Source: an uncultured Gemmatimonadales bacterium (GTDB taxonomy: Bacteria > Gemmatimonadota > Gemmatimonadetes > Gemmatimonadales > GWC2-71-9). From it: a stretch of DNA of 64,000 nucleotides. The translations under genes and the position numbers were made by a program. Location: NCBI GenBank assembly GCA_963795085.1, contig CAWCFX010000004.1:320001-384000 (forward strand). Direction: 5' to 3'. Below are positions 13,518 to 19,996 of the stretch, in pieces (positions within the stretch are counted from its first letter, which is position 1; the number at the start of each line of letters is the position of its first letter). The notes below the pieces were generated by a model. That model saw nothing but the letters and a program-made list of their open reading frames with translations, was not told the origin of the DNA and made no database searches.

Positions 13518-14093
13518 ATGCGGATGCAACTGGTTCTCCTCGGTACGCTTCTGGGTATGCCGGCCTGGTCGGGAGCTCAGCAGGCGGTGCGGGATGGTAG
13601 CGTGGCGGAAGGGACGCTCAGTTTCGATGGCCGGGCCACGGTCGGTAATTTCACGGGGACGACGTCCACCGTCACCGGCCGGTTGACCGGCGGCAGCGAT
13701 CTCGCCCAGGCACGGGGCTGGATCGAGGCGCCGGTGGAGTCGCTCAAGACCGGCAACGGCCGGCGCGACCGCGACCTTAACAAGTCCATGGAGTCCGACC
13801 AGTTCCCCGTCCTCCGGTTCGATCTCGCGGGCGTCGTGCCGGGGGTCACCCGGGGCGATTCGACCGCAGTCACCCTGACCGGCTCGTTTACGATTCACGG
13901 GGTGGTGCGTGAGGTCGCAGTGCCGGCCACCGTGATCCGGCTGCCGGGGCACCTCCGGCTCCGCACCAGTTTTCCGATGAACCTGGTCGATTACCAGATC
14001 GGCGGGCTGAGCAAGATGCTGGGCTTGCTCAAGATGTATCCGGACATCACGGTGCACGTGGATCTGCTGTTCTCGCAACCGACCGGCTCTTGA
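13518..14093 (+). CDS. YceI-family lipid/polyisoprenoid-binding protein
   Basis: Signal peptide; SLKTGNGRRDRDL...MESDQFP, GSFTIHGV motifs. Confidence 0.9.
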   Translation: MRMQLVLLGTLLGMPAWSGAQQAVRDGSVAEGTLSFDGRATVGNFTGTTSTVTGRLTGGSDLAQARGWIEAPVESLKTGNGRRDRDLNKSMESDQFPVLRFDLAGVVPGVTRGDSTAVTLTGSFTIHGVVREVAVPATVIRLPGHLRLRTSFPMNLVDYQIGGLSKMLGLLKMYPDITVHVDLLFSQPTGS

Positions 14094-14199: not shown

Positions 14200-14634
14200 C
14201 TAGGGAGTGATACGCACCCGCCCAAGGCGGGAGACAACGACCTGGCGGCGGGCGCTGCCGCGGGTGACCACGAAGGTGGCGTTGGCAAAGCCCAGCGTCA
14301 CGCCGGTCGGGGCGAAGCGAAGCGTCCGGGGCGGCGAGGCCATGGCGGCACCCCGGGGTACCGGTCCCGGCGCCGCCCAGGCGGGGCTCATGGCCCCCCC
14401 GGCCTGAGTCACCCGGAGAATCAGGGAATCGGCGCGGATCTCCAGTTCGGTGGATCGTCCCTCCAGGACGGCGCGGATCCGGGCCCGCTGGTGGCTCCCC
14501 GCAATGTCTGCCGCGACGGCCTGGACGATGTATCGGTCGCGGAATCGGCCGGCCAGCGGCGCGGCCAGCGACGAGATGAGGCCCACGAGAACCAGCGCCA
14601 GGGCCACCTCCACCAGGGTCATTCCGTTCTTCAT
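14200..14634 (-). CDS. Type IV prepilin-like protein (GspH/FimT-like)
   Basis: N-terminal KNG/MTLVE prepilin cleavage motif with a hydrophobic helix; C-terminal VVVSRLGRVR. Confidence 0.88.
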   Translation of the reverse strand: MKNGMTLVEVALALVLVGLISSLAAPLAGRFRDRYIVQAVAADIAGSHQRARIRAVLEGRSTELEIRADSLILRVTQAGGAMSPAWAAPGPVPRGAAMASPPRTLRFAPTGVTLGFANATFVVTRGSARRQVVVSRLGRVRITP

Positions 14635-14919: not shown

Positions 14920-16215
14920 GTGGTTGCTATTCCCTCGTTTGAGCTTTTCTCCCCGGACGACCTCCAGGTCGATTCGACCAGTTTCGGAACTTTTCTCAAT
15001 CGGGCCCGTACCGAGCGGGAGCAGGGCCGGGACGTGCCGGCTCGCATTGCGCTGGGAGCCTACCTGGGCGCCCGGCTGGTGGATCGCTGCCTCAAGCTGA
15101 CCGCCGGGGACGACGAGCAGGAAGGGTTCCGCTGGCAGCTGGAAAGCACCCGCAAGTTCCTGGACGACCTCCCTGCCGGCGATGCCGAAGTGTCCCACCT
15201 GCTGGGGATCATCGACGCCATCACCTCACCGCCCAAACACCGGGATACCGTGCTCCGCATGGCGCTGGTGGCCTACGGCTATTTCCTGGAATACGAGGCC
15301 CGGCTCGAGGAGGCCCTCGAGGTCCTCGGCCTGAGCGCCCGCACCTACCGCGCCGACCTCCCGCTGGTAGATGCCGCTACCCTCTCGCTATTCGTCGCCC
15401 GGCTGAACCGGATGCTGGCCCGGTGGGACCGGGCCACCCGGGCGTATGCCATGGCCGAGCAGGCCGGCCTCGAGGCCCGCGACCTCAGCACCGTGATGCT
15501 GGCCCGGATCGGCAGGGCCAACACCATGTGGGGCCAGGGTAACCTGCCGGCCGCCCGTGCCGCGCTGGAAGCGGTCGTGGCCGAAACAGATTCTCCTGAA
15601 CTGTTCGATTGCCGGGGCCGCGCCCTGAGCGATCTCTCGGTAGTTCTTGAGCGGCAGGGATACCTGCTGGAGGCGATCCGGACCCGGTACGATGCCCTGC
15701 GCACTCTGCGCGACGAGGTGCAGCGGACCCGCGCCTTTGGCGACCTCGGTATCACCTTGCGGATGGTCGGGGAGTACGACGCGGCTCGCCGCAGCCTGGA
15801 GATCGTCATGCGGTCGGACGCGGGCCTTCTCCTCCGGGCCAACTCCTGCCTGGAAATGATGGAACTGGAGTCCGCGGTCGGCAACCGGATGGCCTTCGAG
15901 CGCTATCGCCAGGAAGCGCGCACCTTCGAGGACCGAATGCCCCCCTCTATGGCGATCGATTACCGCTATAAAGTAGGCATCGGATTCGCCCGGTTTGGCA
16001 AGGAGGCCAAGGCTCGGTCCATGTTGCGGGAAGCGCTGGCCCTGTCGGAGGCCCACGGGTTGAACCAGTGGTATTTCAAGGTGGACCGGGTGCTGAATGG
16101 TCTGGCCCTCTGCGAGGAGCAGACCCAGGAAACAGCCGCAACCACCGAGTCCAGTGAAGTGGCCTCGGCGGCTGCGGAGATCGTGGCGGGACTGCTCGAG
16201 CTTACCGGAGTGTAG
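14920..16215 (+). CDS. Cytoplasmic all-helical TPR-like protein (candidate peptide receptor)
   Basis: 431 aa, no signal peptide; TPR-like units (ARIGRANTMWGQGNLPAAR, RALSDLSVVLERQGYLLEA, RAFGDLGITLRMVGEYDAAR, VGIGFARFGKEAKAR). Confidence 0.8.
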   Translation: MVAIPSFELFSPDDLQVDSTSFGTFLNRARTEREQGRDVPARIALGAYLGARLVDRCLKLTAGDDEQEGFRWQLESTRKFLDDLPAGDAEVSHLLGIIDAITSPPKHRDTVLRMALVAYGYFLEYEARLEEALEVLGLSARTYRADLPLVDAATLSLFVARLNRMLARWDRATRAYAMAEQAGLEARDLSTVMLARIGRANTMWGQGNLPAARAALEAVVAETDSPELFDCRGRALSDLSVVLERQGYLLEAIRTRYDALRTLRDEVQRTRAFGDLGITLRMVGEYDAARRSLEIVMRSDAGLLLRANSCLEMMELESAVGNRMAFERYRQEARTFEDRMPPSMAIDYRYKVGIGFARFGKEAKARSMLREALALSEAHGLNQWYFKVDRVLNGLALCEEQTQETAATTESSEVASAAAEIVAGLLELTGV

Positions 16216-16224
16216 ACCTTCCGG

Positions 16225-16368
16225 TTACTGGCATGAACGGCCGCCGGAACCCTGGGTTTCCGTGCAAGGTGCGGTATCGGGCCGGGGTCCGCTGGCGTCA
16301 GCGCAGGCGGCGGTCCCAAACAGGGTGAGCGTGACCAGCAGAAGGGCGAGGCGCTTGGTGGTGGACAT
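16225..16368 (-). CDS. Unannotated 47-aa small lipoprotein/peptide precursor
   Basis: MSTTKRLALLLVTLTLFGTAACADASGPRPDTAPCTETQGSGGRSCQ*. AAGGAG SD 6 nt before ATG; n-region KR, hydrophobic core, lipobox-like TAAC. Below the ORF-track length cutoff. Confidence 0.85.
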   Translation of the reverse strand: MSTTKRLALLLVTLTLFGTAACADASGPRPDTAPCTETQGSGGRSCQ

Positions 16369-16408
16369 CGTTAGCTCCTTGTAAGCTAGGTTCCTGGGGG
16401 GCGCCCTT

Positions 16409-16476
16409 ATTATCGGGCGGACCGATGGCCCTGTTTAGGCCCTTTTTACGACATTCAGGGACGGTTTTGCGACATT
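16409..16476 (-). promoter_or_regulatory. Peptide-gene promoter with tandem direct repeats
   Basis: Minus strand TAAACA (16437-16432)-17 bp-GATAAT (16414-16409); direct repeats TTTTaCGACATT (16444-16455) and TTTTgCGACATT (16465-16476), 21 bp apart. Confidence 0.55.
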
Positions 16477-16477
16477 G

Positions 16478-17269
16478 ATGCTGCTTCTGGCGGTGGTGCC
16501 CGGTCTTCGGCTGCATCAACTCCGTACAGCTGATCCAAAGCTGTACAGCTTTCTTGGGCTGCCGTCGTGGGCCGAGGTGGTGGATACCATCCGGCACCGC
16601 CCGGTTGAGATGGTGGTGGTGGACCCGTTGCTGGACGGGCACATGCGGACCCGTGAGATCGAACGGCTGCGAGTGCTGTTTCCATCGCTGCCAATTCTGA
16701 TCTACACCAGCCTCACGCCGGAAGCGCCGAGCGCGTTGCTGGAGTTGGGCCGGATCGGGATCCGGCGGGTCATTCTGGCCCGTTTCGACGACAGCCCGGC
16801 GAACCTGCGGGTCATTCTGCGGGACGAGCTGGAGTGCACGGTCTCCCGCAAAGTGATCCAGGGAGTGGAACCCCTGCTGGTCGGCCTGCCGGCGCAGGCC
16901 CGGTGGGCGCTGGCGTCCCTGCTGCACGCCCCGTCCGAGGTGGCCACGGTGACGGAGCTGGCCGAGCGGGTTCGGATCAAGCGGCGAACCTGTGAACGCT
17001 GGTTTGCGCGGGTTGGATTGCCCTCTCCCCGAATGGTCCTGGTGCTGGCGCGGCTGCTCTACGCCCATCGGCTGCTCCAGGATCCCGGGTACACGGTCGA
17101 GGACGTGGCGGTGAAACTCGGCTATGGCCGGACCCGGAGTCTGCAGTCCCAGTTCAAGGAGATCTTCGGCCTGACGGCGGGTGAGGTGCGGCTTTCGCTG
17201 ACCGTGGAGGAGGCGCTGGACTTGGTAACCAAGCGGTATTTTGCCGGACTCAACAAGGCGGCATCGTAA
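16478..17269 (+). CDS. AraC-family regulator with a receiver-like N-terminal domain
   Basis: C-terminal VTELAERV..RRTCERWF..GLPSP...AHRLLQDPGYTVEDVAVKLGY...FKEIFGLTA; N-terminal VVVDP...PILIYT. Confidence 0.9.
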   Translation: MLLLAVVPGLRLHQLRTADPKLYSFLGLPSWAEVVDTIRHRPVEMVVVDPLLDGHMRTREIERLRVLFPSLPILIYTSLTPEAPSALLELGRIGIRRVILARFDDSPANLRVILRDELECTVSRKVIQGVEPLLVGLPAQARWALASLLHAPSEVATVTELAERVRIKRRTCERWFARVGLPSPRMVLVLARLLYAHRLLQDPGYTVEDVAVKLGYGRTRSLQSQFKEIFGLTAGEVRLSLTVEEALDLVTKRYFAGLNKAAS

Positions 17270-17670
17270 TGGCCAGGGTACTGCTCATCGACGATGAACC
17301 CTCGGTGCGGAATGCGCTGGAACGCGCGCTTCGGTATTTCGGCTACGACGTGATGTCGGCCGCGGGGGGGGACTCCGCCTATGAGCTGCTGCAGCACGAG
17401 ACCTTCGATGCGATCCTGCTGGATATCCGGATGCCGCTCATGTCGGGTGACGCGCTCTTCCTTGCGCTGGTGCGCAGGTGGCCCGAGCTGCGCGACCGCA
17501 TCATCCTGATGAGCGGCGACCCCGACAATGCCACCGAGGGCTGGTCGGCCGAGCTGAAGAGCCGTCCGCTGCTGGCCAAGCCGTTCACACTGGACGCGCT
17601 CAAGCACTGCCTCACCAGCGTCCTGTCCCGCCAGGTTCAACCCCGTCCCAAGTTCGGCAACGGCGCATGA
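17269..17670 (+). CDS. Single-domain response regulator
   Basis: VLLIDDE, ILLDIRMP, MSG, KPF motifs; TAATG overlap with the AraC gene. Confidence 0.92.
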   Translation: MARVLLIDDEPSVRNALERALRYFGYDVMSAAGGDSAYELLQHETFDAILLDIRMPLMSGDALFLALVRRWPELRDRIILMSGDPDNATEGWSAELKSRPLLAKPFTLDALKHCLTSVLSRQVQPRPKFGNGA

Positions 17671-18323
17671 CCGGATCGAATCCCGGTGCGCCGGGTGCCG
17701 ATCCGCTGCGAGTTCTCCGGGAGTACCGTGCGCTGGCTCCGTGGAGCCTGCGGGATCTCGCCGCCCTGGCCGGTTCCATCCTCGACGCCTCCGCCATCTT
17801 CCCCCTCAATGTGTCGGCCCGGGCCCGCCCCACCGAACGGACTATCCGGTACTACGTGGCGCAGGGACTGGTGAGTCCCCCCGAGGGGCGGGGTACCGCC
17901 GCGACCTATAGCTACCGCCATCTGCTCCAGGTGCTGGCCATCAAGCTCCGCCAGATGGAAGGCTCCACCCTGGAGACGATTACCCGGGACCTGGCCGACC
18001 AGGGCGGCGACGTGATCGAGCGGCGAGTCGCCGCGGCGCTGGGGGCTGGACTCCCGGCACCGTCCCTGATCACCGTGACCCAGCCGGGCGCCCCGCGCGG
18101 CCGGGTGGGCCGAGCCATCCAGGACTGGCAGTGGGGCAGCAGCAACGGCGACCTGGAGCCTCCCTCCAGCTGTCGCCGGATTCCCCTGGGCCATGGCATA
18201 GAGTTGCTGATGGATGAGCGGCATCCGCTGCTGCTGGCCAACCCGGACGAGCAGGCGATCGTCAGCGCCTTTCGCGCGGCCCTGGCGGAACTGGCGGGAG
18301 CGGACCTGCCGGCAGACCGTTAG
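17667..18323 (+). CDS. MerR-like HTH regulator
   Basis: RTIRYYVAQGLVSPPEGRGTAATYSYRHLLQVLAIKLRQ; ATG at 17667 in an ATGA overlap. Confidence 0.85.
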   Translation: MTGSNPGAPGADPLRVLREYRALAPWSLRDLAALAGSILDASAIFPLNVSARARPTERTIRYYVAQGLVSPPEGRGTAATYSYRHLLQVLAIKLRQMEGSTLETITRDLADQGGDVIERRVAAALGAGLPAPSLITVTQPGAPRGRVGRAIQDWQWGSSNGDLEPPSSCRRIPLGHGIELLMDERHPLLLANPDEQAIVSAFRAALAELAGADLPADR

Positions 18324-18346: not shown

Positions 18347-18904
18347 ATGGGTACCATTCTCGTGATTGTCGTCCTGGCCGTGCTGGCGCTGTGGATCATC
18401 GGCGCCTATAACGCCCTGATCGCCCTCAAGAACCAGGTGATGAACGCCTGGAAGCAGATCGACGTGCAGCTCAAGCGGCGGCACGACCTGATTCCCAACC
18501 TGGTCAGCACCGTCAAGGGCGCCATGACCTTCGAACGGCAGACCCTGGAGGCGGTGATCACGGCCCGTAACCAGGCGGTCGGCGCCCAGGGCGTGGCGGC
18601 GACCGCCCGGGCGGAGGGTGAGTTGACGCAGGCGCTGGGCCGGTTGTTCGCCCTGACCGAGGCCTATCCCGATCTCAAGGCGACCGGGAATATCGCGCAG
18701 CTGCAGGAGGAAATTACCAGCACCGAGAACAAGATCGGCTTTGCCCGGCAACTCTACAACGACACGGCCACGGCGTACAACACGAAGCAGATGCAGTTTC
18801 CCACCAACCTGGTCGCCGGATTGGCCAAGGCGGTACCGGCCGAACTGTGGGAGATCGACGACGCATCCGAGCGGGCGGTCCCCAAGGTCGACCTCTCCAC
18901 ATGA
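18347..18904 (+). CDS. lemA: LemA family protein
   Basis: YNALI...AWKQIDVQLKRRHDLIPNLV, EAYPDLKA, ARQLYND...FPTNLVA; GAGGAG SD. Confidence 0.95.
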   Translation: MGTILVIVVLAVLALWIIGAYNALIALKNQVMNAWKQIDVQLKRRHDLIPNLVSTVKGAMTFERQTLEAVITARNQAVGAQGVAATARAEGELTQALGRLFALTEAYPDLKATGNIAQLQEEITSTENKIGFARQLYNDTATAYNTKQMQFPTNLVAGLAKAVPAELWEIDDASERAVPKVDLST

Positions 18905-18985
18905 TGACGGTCAGCAGCCGGCAGTAGGCTGTGCGCGGGGCCTTCCTGCGCACCGCGCGCTTCTCACTGCGCACCCCTCGCTTCT

Positions 18986-19996
18986 ATGTCGGACTCTAAT
19001 CTTTTCTCCCAGCAGGAGAGCAACCGGAAGCGAACCCGCTGGCTGGTGGCCGGCTTTCTCCTGTTCTTTGGCTGGGTCGGCTTCGGAGGGGATCTCGGCC
19101 TCTACCTGCTGACGGCGGAGCAGCAGTCCGGATACCGGCACACGGTTCCGTTGATCGGCATCGTGATGACGCTGGCAGCCGGCGCCATCTGCTGGTCCTC
19201 CTTCCGCAAAGGCCCCGCCCGGGTCCTGTGGGCCGCGGGCGCCTCGGAGGTGGTGGAGGCGGTGACCCCGGCGCACCGTCAGCTCGCCAACGTGGTCGAG
19301 GAAATGGCGATCGCCTCCGGCGTGCCGGTGCCGAAGATCTGGGTGGTGCCGGATCCCGATCCCAACGCCTTTGCCACCGGGCTCGATGCCCAGCGGGCCA
19401 ACATCGCGGTGACCGAAGGCCTGCTGCAGCTGCTCGATCGCGATGAGCTGCAGGCGGTCATCGCGCACGAGATGGCCCATATCAGAAATCTCGACGTGCG
19501 GCTGATGACCATGCTGGCCGCGATGGTCGGCGCCATCGCGCTCATATCCGATGGCATGGGACGGATGCTGGGGCGGGGGGTCCGGGTCGGGGGCGGGGGG
19601 AAAGGCCGCGGCGGCAAGAAGGGCAATCAGCTTGCCATCATCATCCTGGTGCTCTGGGTACTGACCCTCCTCGTGGCTCCGCTGATCACCCGGCTCCTCG
19701 CCATGGGGGTAAGCCGGAAGCGCGAATTCCTGGCCGACGCCTCGGCCGCCCAGTTCACCCGTAACCCTGACGCCCTGGCCAGCGCCCTCGAGAAACTGGA
19801 CGGCGCCCCCGGCGCCACCCGGGCCATCACCCGCGGCGCCGCCCATCTCTGTATCGTGGACCCCGGCGAACGAAAGCTCTCCCAGCGGGACGGACTGCTG
19901 GGCGACATCTTTGCCTCCCACCCGCCCATCCGGCACCGGATCACCCGGCTCAAGGGGATGGCGTACCAGCAGGCGAACGCAACCAGCGACCGGTGA
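18986..19996 (+). CDS. htpX: M48 membrane zinc metalloprotease, HtpX-like
   Basis: PNAFATG, AVIAHEMAHI (HExxH), SRKREFLADA, FASHPP. Confidence 0.92.
   Translation: MSDSNLFSQQESNRKRTRWLVAGFLLFFGWVGFGGDLGLYLLTAEQQSGYRHTVPLIGIVMTLAAGAICWSSFRKGPARVLWAAGASEVVEAVTPAHRQLANVVEEMAIASGVPVPKIWVVPDPDPNAFATGLDAQRANIAVTEGLLQLLDRDELQAVIAHEMAHIRNLDVRLMTMLAAMVGAIALISDGMGRMLGRGVRVGGGGKGRGGKKGNQLAIIILVLWVLTLLVAPLITRLLAMGVSRKREFLADASAAQFTRNPDALASALEKLDGAPGATRAITRGAAHLCIVDPGERKLSQRDGLLGDIFASHPPIRHRITRLKGMAYQQANATSDR

Follow-up and report, generated by a model that had tools for sequence, protein, structure and literature searches.

A small lipoprotein-type peptide gene paired with a TPR protein gene in Gemmatimonadales: a candidate signal in an RRNPP-like cassette

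Results

A peptide gene between a TPR gene and a regulator gene

The stretch of DNA considered here, which we call the window, comprises 64,000 nucleotides from an uncultured Gemmatimonadales bacterium (assembly GCA_963795085.1, contig CAWCFX010000004.1, positions 320,001 to 384,000 of the forward strand), and our subject is a small open reading frame (ORF) on its minus strand that encodes a prepropeptide of 47 amino acids (aa). Its 47 codons and stop occupy 16225..16368, from an ATG at 16366-16368 to a TAA at 16225-16227, and it fills a 259-bp gap between two well-supported genes. One encodes a cytoplasmic protein of 431 aa made up of tetratricopeptide repeats (TPRs; 14920..16215, plus strand) and is convergent with the peptide gene, the two stop codons lying 9 nt apart; the other, divergent from the peptide gene, encodes a regulator of 263 aa counted from its ATG (16478..17269, plus strand), with an N-terminal receiver fold and a C-terminal AraC-type helix-turn-helix (HTH). 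The ORF had been picked out beforehand from the letters of the window alone, in what we refer to as the original prediction, and was missing from the list of ORFs that accompanied them, probably because 47 aa falls below the 60-aa default of the program that made the list.

The anatomy described in the original prediction can be followed residue by residue, on the minus strand throughout. The strong AAGGAG Shine-Dalgarno site that it reported stands at 16375..16380, 6 nt before the ATG, and the end it gave for the feature, 16380, is the 5' end of this site. Its signal peptide with a lipobox-like T-A-A-C corresponds to residues 1-21 (16306..16368), in which an n-region with Lys5-Arg6 is followed by an uncharged h-region (residues 7-21) closing with the lipobox residues T-A-A before Cys22. 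The codon of Cys22 (16303..16305), the predicted lipidated first residue of the mature peptide, is an invariant column in our alignment of 12 family members (A1). The predicted mature part has 26 residues, as had been claimed: after Cys22 comes a linker of residues 23-34 (16267..16302), which opens with a conserved A-D-x-S/T-G-P motif, carries Asp24 and Pro28, both invariant in A1, and is rich in proline over residues 27-34; then come Cys35 and Cys46 (16231..16266), which enclose a polar core of 10 residues (36-45) and, judging by the sequence and by comparison within the family, form a candidate disulfide loop; and Gln47 is the last residue.

The host genome (G000) encodes the enzymes that such a precursor would need, with one copy each of Lgt (PF01790 at 1.7e-52) and LspA (PF01252 at 4.4e-34), in addition to four DsbA-like proteins and four Opp/Dpp-type binding proteins. 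All of these are needed for the path that we propose below, yet none is specific to it. Taken at the level of its motifs, the ORF probably encodes an exported, lipid-anchored mini-peptide.

Evidence for a genuine gene

When 61 related genomes were searched with the single sequence, similar small frames turned up both within its genus and in further genera of the family, and in 12 of 12 further relatives' loci the frame has an ATG behind a GGAG-type site and a stop within a few codons of the last cysteine. Overall, an orthologous ORF was recovered from 78 loci, with GGAG or GAGG 4-14 nt upstream of the start in 46 of them; the filter used to collect the later relatives' loci and the 78-locus set demanded an initial methionine, a purine-rich site and a lipobox, so that these three features are present there by construction. 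The ratio of non-synonymous to synonymous polymorphism (pN/pS) has a median of 0.29 and is below 1 in all 114 equal-length pairs, values that are biased downward since the pairs had been pre-selected at ≥60% amino-acid identity. In one pair of loci (L052/L055), the proteins are 98% identical and the DNA 87%. The GC content of the three codon positions (0.57/0.61/0.80 over the 78 loci, third position last) is that of the proposed frame, and the three antisense frames are open in merely 45, 37 and 18 of the 78 loci. In the window, a 95-aa ORF on the plus strand (16097-16384) runs antisense over the entire peptide gene, and is a typical spurious frame of GC-rich DNA.

The family extends well beyond the genomes in which it was first aligned. 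Against 1.84 billion cluster representatives, a profile built from the 12 members of A1 gave 139 matching proteins at E≤1e-3, a number that falls to 14 at E≤1e-10; stand-alone proteins of 38-66 aa that align from end to end make up nearly all of the 139. The same profile matched 577 clusters at 90% identity with E≤1e-5, none of which has a Pfam domain, and the source names shown for them are nearly all 'hypothetical protein', with a single stray jgi name, 'Flp pilus assembly protein TadD'. Neither Pfam nor NCBIfam holds a family for the peptide, the best NCBIfam matches being at E≥0.018 and to single members only. One match of another kind, P0133 (916 aa), consists of many identical repeats of ~70 residues and owes its match to a brief A-C-A-C-A-D segment; it probably arose from a DNA repeat by faulty assembly or translation, and is unrelated to the family. 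Among public sequencing runs, no RNA run was listed with the locus, and seven DNA runs from 3 studies contain part of the stretch, with shares of ≤0.26.

Could the frame nonetheless be a chance opening in GC-rich intergenic DNA? Spurious ORFs are common in genomes of high GC content, and several overlapping frames are open at this very locus; however, conservation, selection and composition all speak to the contrary, and we regard this explanation as refuted to our satisfaction and next to impossible. The small ORF is, in our judgement, almost certainly a real gene.

Conserved and variable parts of the peptide

We took the anatomy of the family from the 137 representatives of ≤120 aa, using a regular expression for the lipobox modelled on the PROSITE rule. 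It matched 136 of the 137, and the core is present in almost all members; the original prediction had made its case depend on conservation of the lipobox and of the C-terminal motif, and it is the lipobox and the polar core that are conserved. Among these 136 proteins, the residue at position +2 is Ala in 86 and that at +3 is Asp in 98, and a motif of the [ST][GA]P type follows the lipobox cysteine within ≤10 residues in 130.

The C-terminal end is more varied. Exactly two further cysteines are found in 116 of the 136 representatives, enclosing loops of 7, 8, 9 or 10 residues in 46, 30, 17 and 12 cases, respectively, and 81 of these 116 two-cysteine members end 0-2 residues past the last cysteine. 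Another 16 of the 136 have no cysteine after that of the lipobox, and end with a polar core of the Q-G-S-G-T or Q-G-A-N-N type. In a separate sample of loci anchored on the neighbouring LemA gene (see below), a cysteine pair occurs in only 5 of 41 intact peptide genes. Exact internal repeats of ≥5 aa are present in 15/136 and mostly comprise the core, either as one copy within the cysteine pair and a second, linear copy at the C-terminus, or as 2-3 tandem copies, as at locus L096, which has two in tandem.

As far as can be read from the sequences, then, the near-universal features are a predicted lipoprotein signal, a mature start of the form C-A-D-x-T-G-P and, at the C-terminus, 7-8 polar residues that form a core of the Q-G-S/A-N/G-N/T type. 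The 10-residue candidate loop of the window is by the same comparison a long version of a subfamily feature: because there are members without the cysteines, because the pair is rare in LemA-anchored loci, and because second copies of the core can be linear, the loop appears to decorate the core and not to define the family. We had entertained the loop as the defining feature, and rejected it on the 16/136 and 5/41 counts. Two other ideas were also tried and set aside. A metal-binding role, suggested by two cysteines, a terminal His and a MerR-like neighbour, does not fit a last residue that is variable or absent, nor the existence of members without the cysteines. Neither is C-A-D-x-x-G-P a general N-terminus for lipoproteins of this organism, as it occurs in only 2 of 122 large candidate lipoproteins of G000 in a crude regular-expression scan.

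The peptide gene and the TPR gene travel together

The pairing seen in the window is repeated across relatives. Among 28 loci found with the peptide profile (a set that leaves out L024), 27 have the TPR gene as a direct neighbour and the other is cut by a contig end; the receiver-AraC gene is adjacent in 23. The LemA-anchored loci, from metagenome-assembled genomes of Gemmatimonadales, were chosen independently of the peptide, and tell the same story from the other side: 43 of them have the TPR gene, and in 41 of these 43 the space between that gene and the regulator gene holds an intact small ORF with a lipobox, recognised by the profile in 36 cases and by inspection in 5. Of the other two, L079 has a different arrangement and no peptide. 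L089 holds a decaying cassette (about 100-2300 of that locus), with the peptide gene frameshifted after the linker, the TPR match reduced to residues 68-301 at 34% identity and only a partial match to the regulator; in the near-identical neighbour genome represented by L088, all three cassette genes are intact.

The geometry of the pair is likewise fixed. Peptide and TPR genes are convergent in 76 of 76 loci that hold both; the distance from stop to stop is -4 nt (an overlap) in 24 loci, 0-12 nt in 28 more and ≤66 nt in 75/76, the exception being a mis-extended case. Five genomes of the family without a match to the peptide profile are also informative: three of them (98-99% complete) lack the TPR protein as well, in a fourth, the TPR protein is accompanied by a divergent, cysteine-less peptide, and a fifth has only a distant TPR relative in another context.

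Where a genome carries more than one profile match, the pair has been duplicated as a whole. In all 10 cassette loci fetched from such genomes, a separate TPR paralogue stands next to the peptide gene, and 8 of them also have a separate regulator, with one locus lacking it and one at a contig end; counting loci found earlier, two cassettes are present in each of six genomes (G097, G185, G136, G031, G221 and G107). We placed 28 TPR proteins in a maximum-likelihood tree, in which five cassette copies fall into one clade (support 100/99), which comprises the second cassettes, not linked to LemA, of G031, G107, G185 and G136 and one copy from G221; its sister clade (100/99) holds cassettes of G007, G031, G185 and G136. 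Each TPR clade keeps its own type of core, with the N-S-N-T label confined to a single branch, from which we infer that one old duplication copied peptide and TPR genes together, and that the two have remained paired since, with different cores. The peptide-TPR pair is thus inherited and duplicated as a unit, and paralogous cassettes have different cores. A functional link between the peptide and the TPR protein is, in our view, highly probable.

The original prediction had suggested a search for paralogues of the peptide; in the window's own genome none beyond chance came to light, the next best match having an E-value of 0.04.

A candidate operator upstream of the peptide gene

The peptide gene is preceded on the minus strand by a sigma-70-like promoter match, TAAACA-17 nt-GATAAT (16409..16437), which is a consensus match only (1 site, as compared with a mean of 0.2 in shuffled sequence). 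Just upstream of its -35-like hexamer, and 4 nt from the ATG of the regulator gene, are two direct repeats, TGTCGCAAA and TGTCGTAAA, with a spacing of 21 bp (16445..16474, minus strand), which we regard as a candidate activator site. The paired-repeat pattern occurs once in the 3.89-Mb genome, and a control with the reversed pattern gave 0 occurrences. The classical layout of sites for AraC/XylS activators is two direct repeats ~21 bp apart that abut the -35 region, and the candidate site resembles these in its spacing, in its place upstream of a -35-like hexamer and in standing beside an AraC-type regulator gene; the regulator itself differs from AraC/XylS-type proteins in that its N-terminal domain has a receiver fold and is not a sugar- or effector-binding domain.

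Judged by eye, in loci with enough upstream sequence, a two-repeat element with variant half-sites (such as TGCCGCAAA or TGTCCCAAA) precedes the peptide gene across genera, and it is kept in loci without an adjacent regulator (L025, L027, L031 and L050). Three of these, L025, L027 and L031, are cassettes of G031, G124 and G107, respectively, that lack the receiver-AraC gene yet have the two-repeat operator; the second cassette of G031 includes the regulator, and that of G107 ends at a contig end. This suggests that regulation in trans between cassettes is possible. At the other end of the peptide gene, a consensus-match scan found no terminator-like site between it and the TPR gene.

The TPR protein and the regulator

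The AlphaFold2 model of the TPR protein (predicted local distance difference test score, pLDDT, 89.2; predicted template modelling score, pTM, 0.82) is all-helical with ~20 helices, and the protein has neither a signal peptide nor an HTH. In a profile search against the PDB, it matched consensus TPR proteins at 1.6e-15; among the 60 PDB matches listed, none of Rap, NprR, PlcR, PrgX or AimR was matched at the sequence level. A search for related loci with the TPR protein as query gave no relative. A structural search with the model gave LGN (Z 23.9) and Pins (22.5) as the top matches, with the Rap-type proteins close behind: the Rap of pLS20 at Z 22.3 (over 326 residues), RapI at 20.8, the phi105 Rap with its peptide at 20.8, and RapH at 20.1. 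Further scores were 19.9 for SprE, 19.6 for NprR, 19.6 for domain III of MalT and 16.5 for PlcR, and unrelated TPR proteins, OGT and subunits of the APC, reached Z 18-19. Foldseek gives the same picture, with Rap/NprR-type matches at ranks 12-48. The Rap proteins are the best bacterial structural matches of the TPR protein, and the modelled fold is consistent with a Rap-like peptide sensor, which is no proof of such a function. A predicted complex of the TPR protein with peptide residues 18-47 scored 0.02 against a mark of 0.32, in a run without controls, and this result counts neither for nor against binding.

The regulator was modelled with a pLDDT of 86.4 as a five-stranded receiver fold (five beta-alpha units), a long linker helix and an AraC-type HTH; its top Foldseek matches are FixJ, RcsB and PorX, and Pfam HTH_18 is matched at 1.5e-14. 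In an alignment of regulators (A3), with positions assigned by eye from the secondary structure of the model, Asp49 and Thr77 are invariant, and there is neither an acidic pair after the first beta-strand nor an invariant Lys; a complete phospho-acceptor pocket would have an acidic pair after beta1, an Asp after beta3, a Thr or Ser after beta4 and a Lys after beta5. Since the acidic pair is missing, the regulator may be an atypical receiver.

Distribution of the family

In a sample across the phylum at E≤1e-7, the window's own family had profile matches in 40 of 125 genomes, a second family in 1 of 69 and ten other families together in 0 of 106. The one match in the second family is a frame of 378 aa and is probably a larger lipoprotein; the 40/125 is a lower bound, as the profile is weak on the subfamily without the cysteines, and this tally includes one unpublished genome (G095). 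A sample within the family gave matches in 152 of 201 genomes at E≤1e-3, a tally that includes four unpublished genomes and whose weakest matches are mere signal peptides of large lipoproteins. As far as searched, and as defined by its sequence profile, this unnamed peptide family is confined to one family of Gemmatimonadales, in which it occurs in many genera.

Neighbouring genes

Besides the TPR gene, the genes around the peptide gene encode two receiver proteins, a MerR-like protein and LemA. The second of the receiver proteins is a stand-alone protein of 133 aa (17269..17670, plus strand), directly after the receiver-AraC regulator and syntenic in most loci. The MerR-type ORF (17478-18323, plus strand; 281 aa, GTG start) overlaps the end of this receiver gene by ~190 nt; because its relatives align only from residue ~60-75 onward, its true start probably lies near 17660-17700, which would place the HTH near the N-terminus as usual. 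Beyond it, the LemA gene is followed by a gene for a 336-aa membrane protein with an H-E-x-x-H motif, probably a peptidase of the M48/HtpX type; most relatives have the two (18347-19996, plus strand) in synteny with the cassette. On the other side, before the TPR gene, lie a YceI-like protein (13518-14093, plus strand) and a GspH-like pseudopilin with an N-terminal methylation motif (14200-14634, minus strand), and a pseudopilin also adjoins the cassette in several other genera (L052, L058 and L059).

Discussion

A peptide signal read by a TPR protein?

We posit, tentatively, that the lipoprotein-type propeptide is the signal half of a three-gene cassette of RRNPP-like character, formed by the peptide, a Rap-like TPR protein and a receiver-AraC activator; this is our preferred reading, one that we would stop just short of calling probable. 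Within it, that the peptide is itself the ligand of the TPR protein is a possibility of which we are not yet persuaded. The original prediction had seen in the mature part a tethered or proteolytically released cyclic signal or ligand. The idea of a signal or ligand accords with a core that varies by lineage, with its exact duplications and with the strict coupling to the TPR protein and the regulator; the idea that it is cyclic does not carry over to the family at large.

How could such a cassette work? The precursor would be exported by Sec, lipidated at Cys22 by Lgt and cleaved by LspA, as suggested by its motif and by the enzymes encoded in the genome. In the subfamily to which the window's peptide belongs, oxidation of Cys35 and Cys46 in the periplasm would then display the 10-residue polar core in the form of a loop. 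Proteolysis in or after the A-D-x-T-G-P and Pro-rich linker would free the C-terminal core from its lipid anchor, a step that we propose because there are precursors with two or three exact copies of the core. By analogy with known systems, an Opp-type permease, for instance, could bring the core back into the cell, where it would bind to the groove of the TPR protein; the TPR protein, having no DNA-binding domain, would act via the neighbouring receiver-AraC regulator. The regulator in turn would bind the 21-bp-spaced repeats by the -35 region, as their position and uniqueness suggest, and drive the peptide gene, closing a feedback loop.

Several considerations weigh against this proposal, or at least call for caution. 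Translation, export, lipidation, disulfide formation, release, uptake and binding of the peptide are all predictions, and the Pfam TPR models are matched only below their gathering scores (TPR_12 at 9.3e-5). In the models, the likeness of the TPR protein to Rap and NprR does not stand clear of unrelated TPR superhelices, with LGN and Pins scoring higher. To our knowledge, RRNPP systems belong to Bacillota and their mobile elements, and in a diderm host a released peptide must cross or bypass the outer membrane. Nowhere is the mature peptide better conserved than at the lipobox cysteine and the residues right behind it, which would be unexpected for a disposable export tag and would suit a peptide that works while tethered. 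The strict co-inheritance with the TPR gene could stem from regulation of the peptide gene, or from coupling by convergent transcription, and not from ligand recognition. Finally, related genomes are not independent of one another, so our counts overstate the support.

Alternative explanations

The tether itself is at the heart of the main rival account, in which the 26-residue mature part stays in the inner or outer membrane with its polar loop facing a periplasmic or surface partner, or modulates the envelope. The TPR protein and the regulator would have no role other than to set its expression, and the peptide would neither be taken up again nor touch the TPR protein. The practically invariant lipobox (136/137) and the post-cysteine residues, with Asp24 and Pro28 invariant in A1 and better conserved than the core, fit this account well, as do the Lgt, LspA and DsbA-like proteins encoded in the genome, and an operator placed as for an activator of the peptide gene would suit a peptide that is the output of the regulators. 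What it leaves unaccounted for is the behaviour of the core. Exact duplications of 7-8 residues whose second copy ends the protein (15/136; for instance L096) are typical of released peptides, the cores differ between paralogous cassettes with each staying with its own TPR lineage, and co-duplication with a cytoplasmic TPR protein in 10 of 10 fetched loci would be unexpected for a plain target gene. We therefore consider a purely tethered role to be somewhat unlikely. Variable cores could also be the mark of an arms race, as in a secreted antagonistic or modified peptide, akin to a bacteriocin or to a ribosomally synthesised and post-translationally modified peptide (RiPP), that is regulated by its neighbours; a small precursor, occasional multi-core forms and cysteines close to Ser/Thr would be in keeping with this. 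However, no modification enzyme, immunity gene or dedicated exporter was seen within the conserved cassette, in a survey that did not include PADLOC or PHROGs; membrane-active bacteriocins differ from the core, which is short, polar and uncharged or acidic; and a Sec/lipobox signal would export the peptide ahead of any cytoplasmic RiPP enzymes, all of which makes such a role improbable.

Lastly, the coupling might operate at the level of RNA, with transcription of the small gene interfering with, or being antisense to, the 3' end of the TPR mRNA, and the peptide product being of minor importance. The convergent order without exception (76/76), the closeness of the stops (a 4-nt overlap in 24 loci, a gap of 0-12 nt in another 28), and the lack of a terminator-like site between the two genes in our scan are what one would expect of such an arrangement. 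Purifying selection on the protein (median pN/pS 0.29) and the conservation of start codon, lipobox, linker motif and core over wide DNA divergence are not, and as the whole story this explanation has a slim chance at best; coupling of this kind through the overlapping 3' ends may exist in addition to a role for the peptide.

Comparison with known peptide systems

If the peptide is indeed a signal, with which systems should it be compared? The signature used by RRNPP_detector has five points: the propeptide is small (10-100 aa) and has a Sec signal, the receptor measures 250-500 aa and contains TPRs, and the two genes are direct neighbours, with signals for signal peptidase II (SPII) counted at the 'relaxed' level; the survey there was applied to complete genomes of Firmicutes and viruses, and intragenic duplications are described as frequent in propeptide genes (PMC10075063). 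Held against that description, the window's pair shows each of the five, namely a peptide of 47 aa, a lipoprotein-type Sec signal by motif, a 431-aa putative receptor, a TPR fold, and an adjacency of 9 nt (PMC10075063). The taxonomic expectation, Bacillota or mobile elements, is not borne out, for the family belongs to Gemmatimonadales. We hold that the cassette works like an RRNPP system in its layout, and have not filed it as a member, because that expectation failed and the receptor is only a putative homologue of the known ones.

The closest parallel may be drawn with the Rap-Phr pairs of Bacillus and of its plasmids and phages. In both, a small Sec-exported propeptide is encoded beside a cytoplasmic TPR protein of ~380-430 aa without a DNA-binding domain; the short polar active part lies at the C-terminus of the precursor, with the core duplicated within some precursor genes; and several divergent cassettes can be present in one genome. 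Rap proteins target response regulators, and the present cassette has genes for a receiver-AraC regulator and a stand-alone receiver close by. The differences are equally clear. The host is a diderm member of Gemmatimonadales and not of Bacillota, the signal is of the SPII type with an invariant lipobox and a conserved motif after the cysteine, the gene pair is convergent with overlapping ends instead of co-directional, and in many members the core sits between two cysteines. There is moreover no detectable sequence similarity, the structural likeness does not rise above that to generic TPR proteins, and binding, processing and import are, in the present case, predicted.

Other systems share single elements. 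Enterococcal pheromones of the cCF10 type, which act with PrgX/PrgQ, derive from lipoprotein precursors, and the peptide and receptor genes are regulated via convergent or overlapping transcription, so that both the use of lipoproteins for peptide signalling and the convergent, overlapping layout have a counterpart there. The enterococcal pheromone, however, is cut from the signal peptide of a lipoprotein of normal size, and PrgX has an HTH domain; here nothing is unusual about the signal peptide, what varies and sets the members apart is the C-terminus of a tiny lipoprotein, and the TPR protein has no HTH. NprR-NprX and PlcR-PapR resemble the cassette in pairing a TPR sensor with a neighbouring propeptide gene, but those receptors bind DNA, a task that would here fall to the separate receiver-AraC protein. 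Entericidins, Lpp and OsmB, finally, are known small lipoproteins with precursors of ~40-80 aa, a lipobox and envelope functions, being helical or of the Gly-zipper kind and membrane-active or structural. The peptide is similar to them in precursor size and lipobox; it has no sequence match to them (Pfam, NCBIfam), and they have neither a variable, duplicable C-terminal core nor any coupling to a TPR protein. A search of a library of open-access papers returned no paper that combines 'RRNPP' with 'Gemmatimonad', and none that combines 'Gemmatimonadota' with 'small lipoprotein'.

Implications

Taken to its furthest, our proposal describes a peptide 'language' native to a double-membraned phylum. 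Lipoprotein sorting would carry the signal to or across the outer membrane; the core would then be clipped and brought back in, to be sensed by a cytoplasmic, Rap-like TPR protein with control over a receiver-AraC activator; cassettes duplicated with different cores would represent separate channels without cross-talk; and the whole would amount to a circuit in the style of RRNPP that is independent of, or very anciently related to, those of Bacillota. We think this complete picture rather doubtful. The layout of the cassette resembles peptide 'pheromone' circuits so far known only from Gram-positive bacteria, and with three genes and one operator, the cassette is small enough to be rebuilt in a laboratory host.

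Even if the peptide turns out to remain tethered, it represents an unnamed family of mini-lipoproteins with hundreds of members, annotated only as hypothetical, in the Gemmatimonadales, which are abundant and poorly studied soil bacteria with an outer membrane. If the signalling role is true, one would have to ask how a peptide signal gets out of a diderm cell and back in, and a lipoprotein-type precursor suggests one answer; and the five-point signature, found in Gemmatimonadales, would widen the range of bacteria in which peptide communication is sought.

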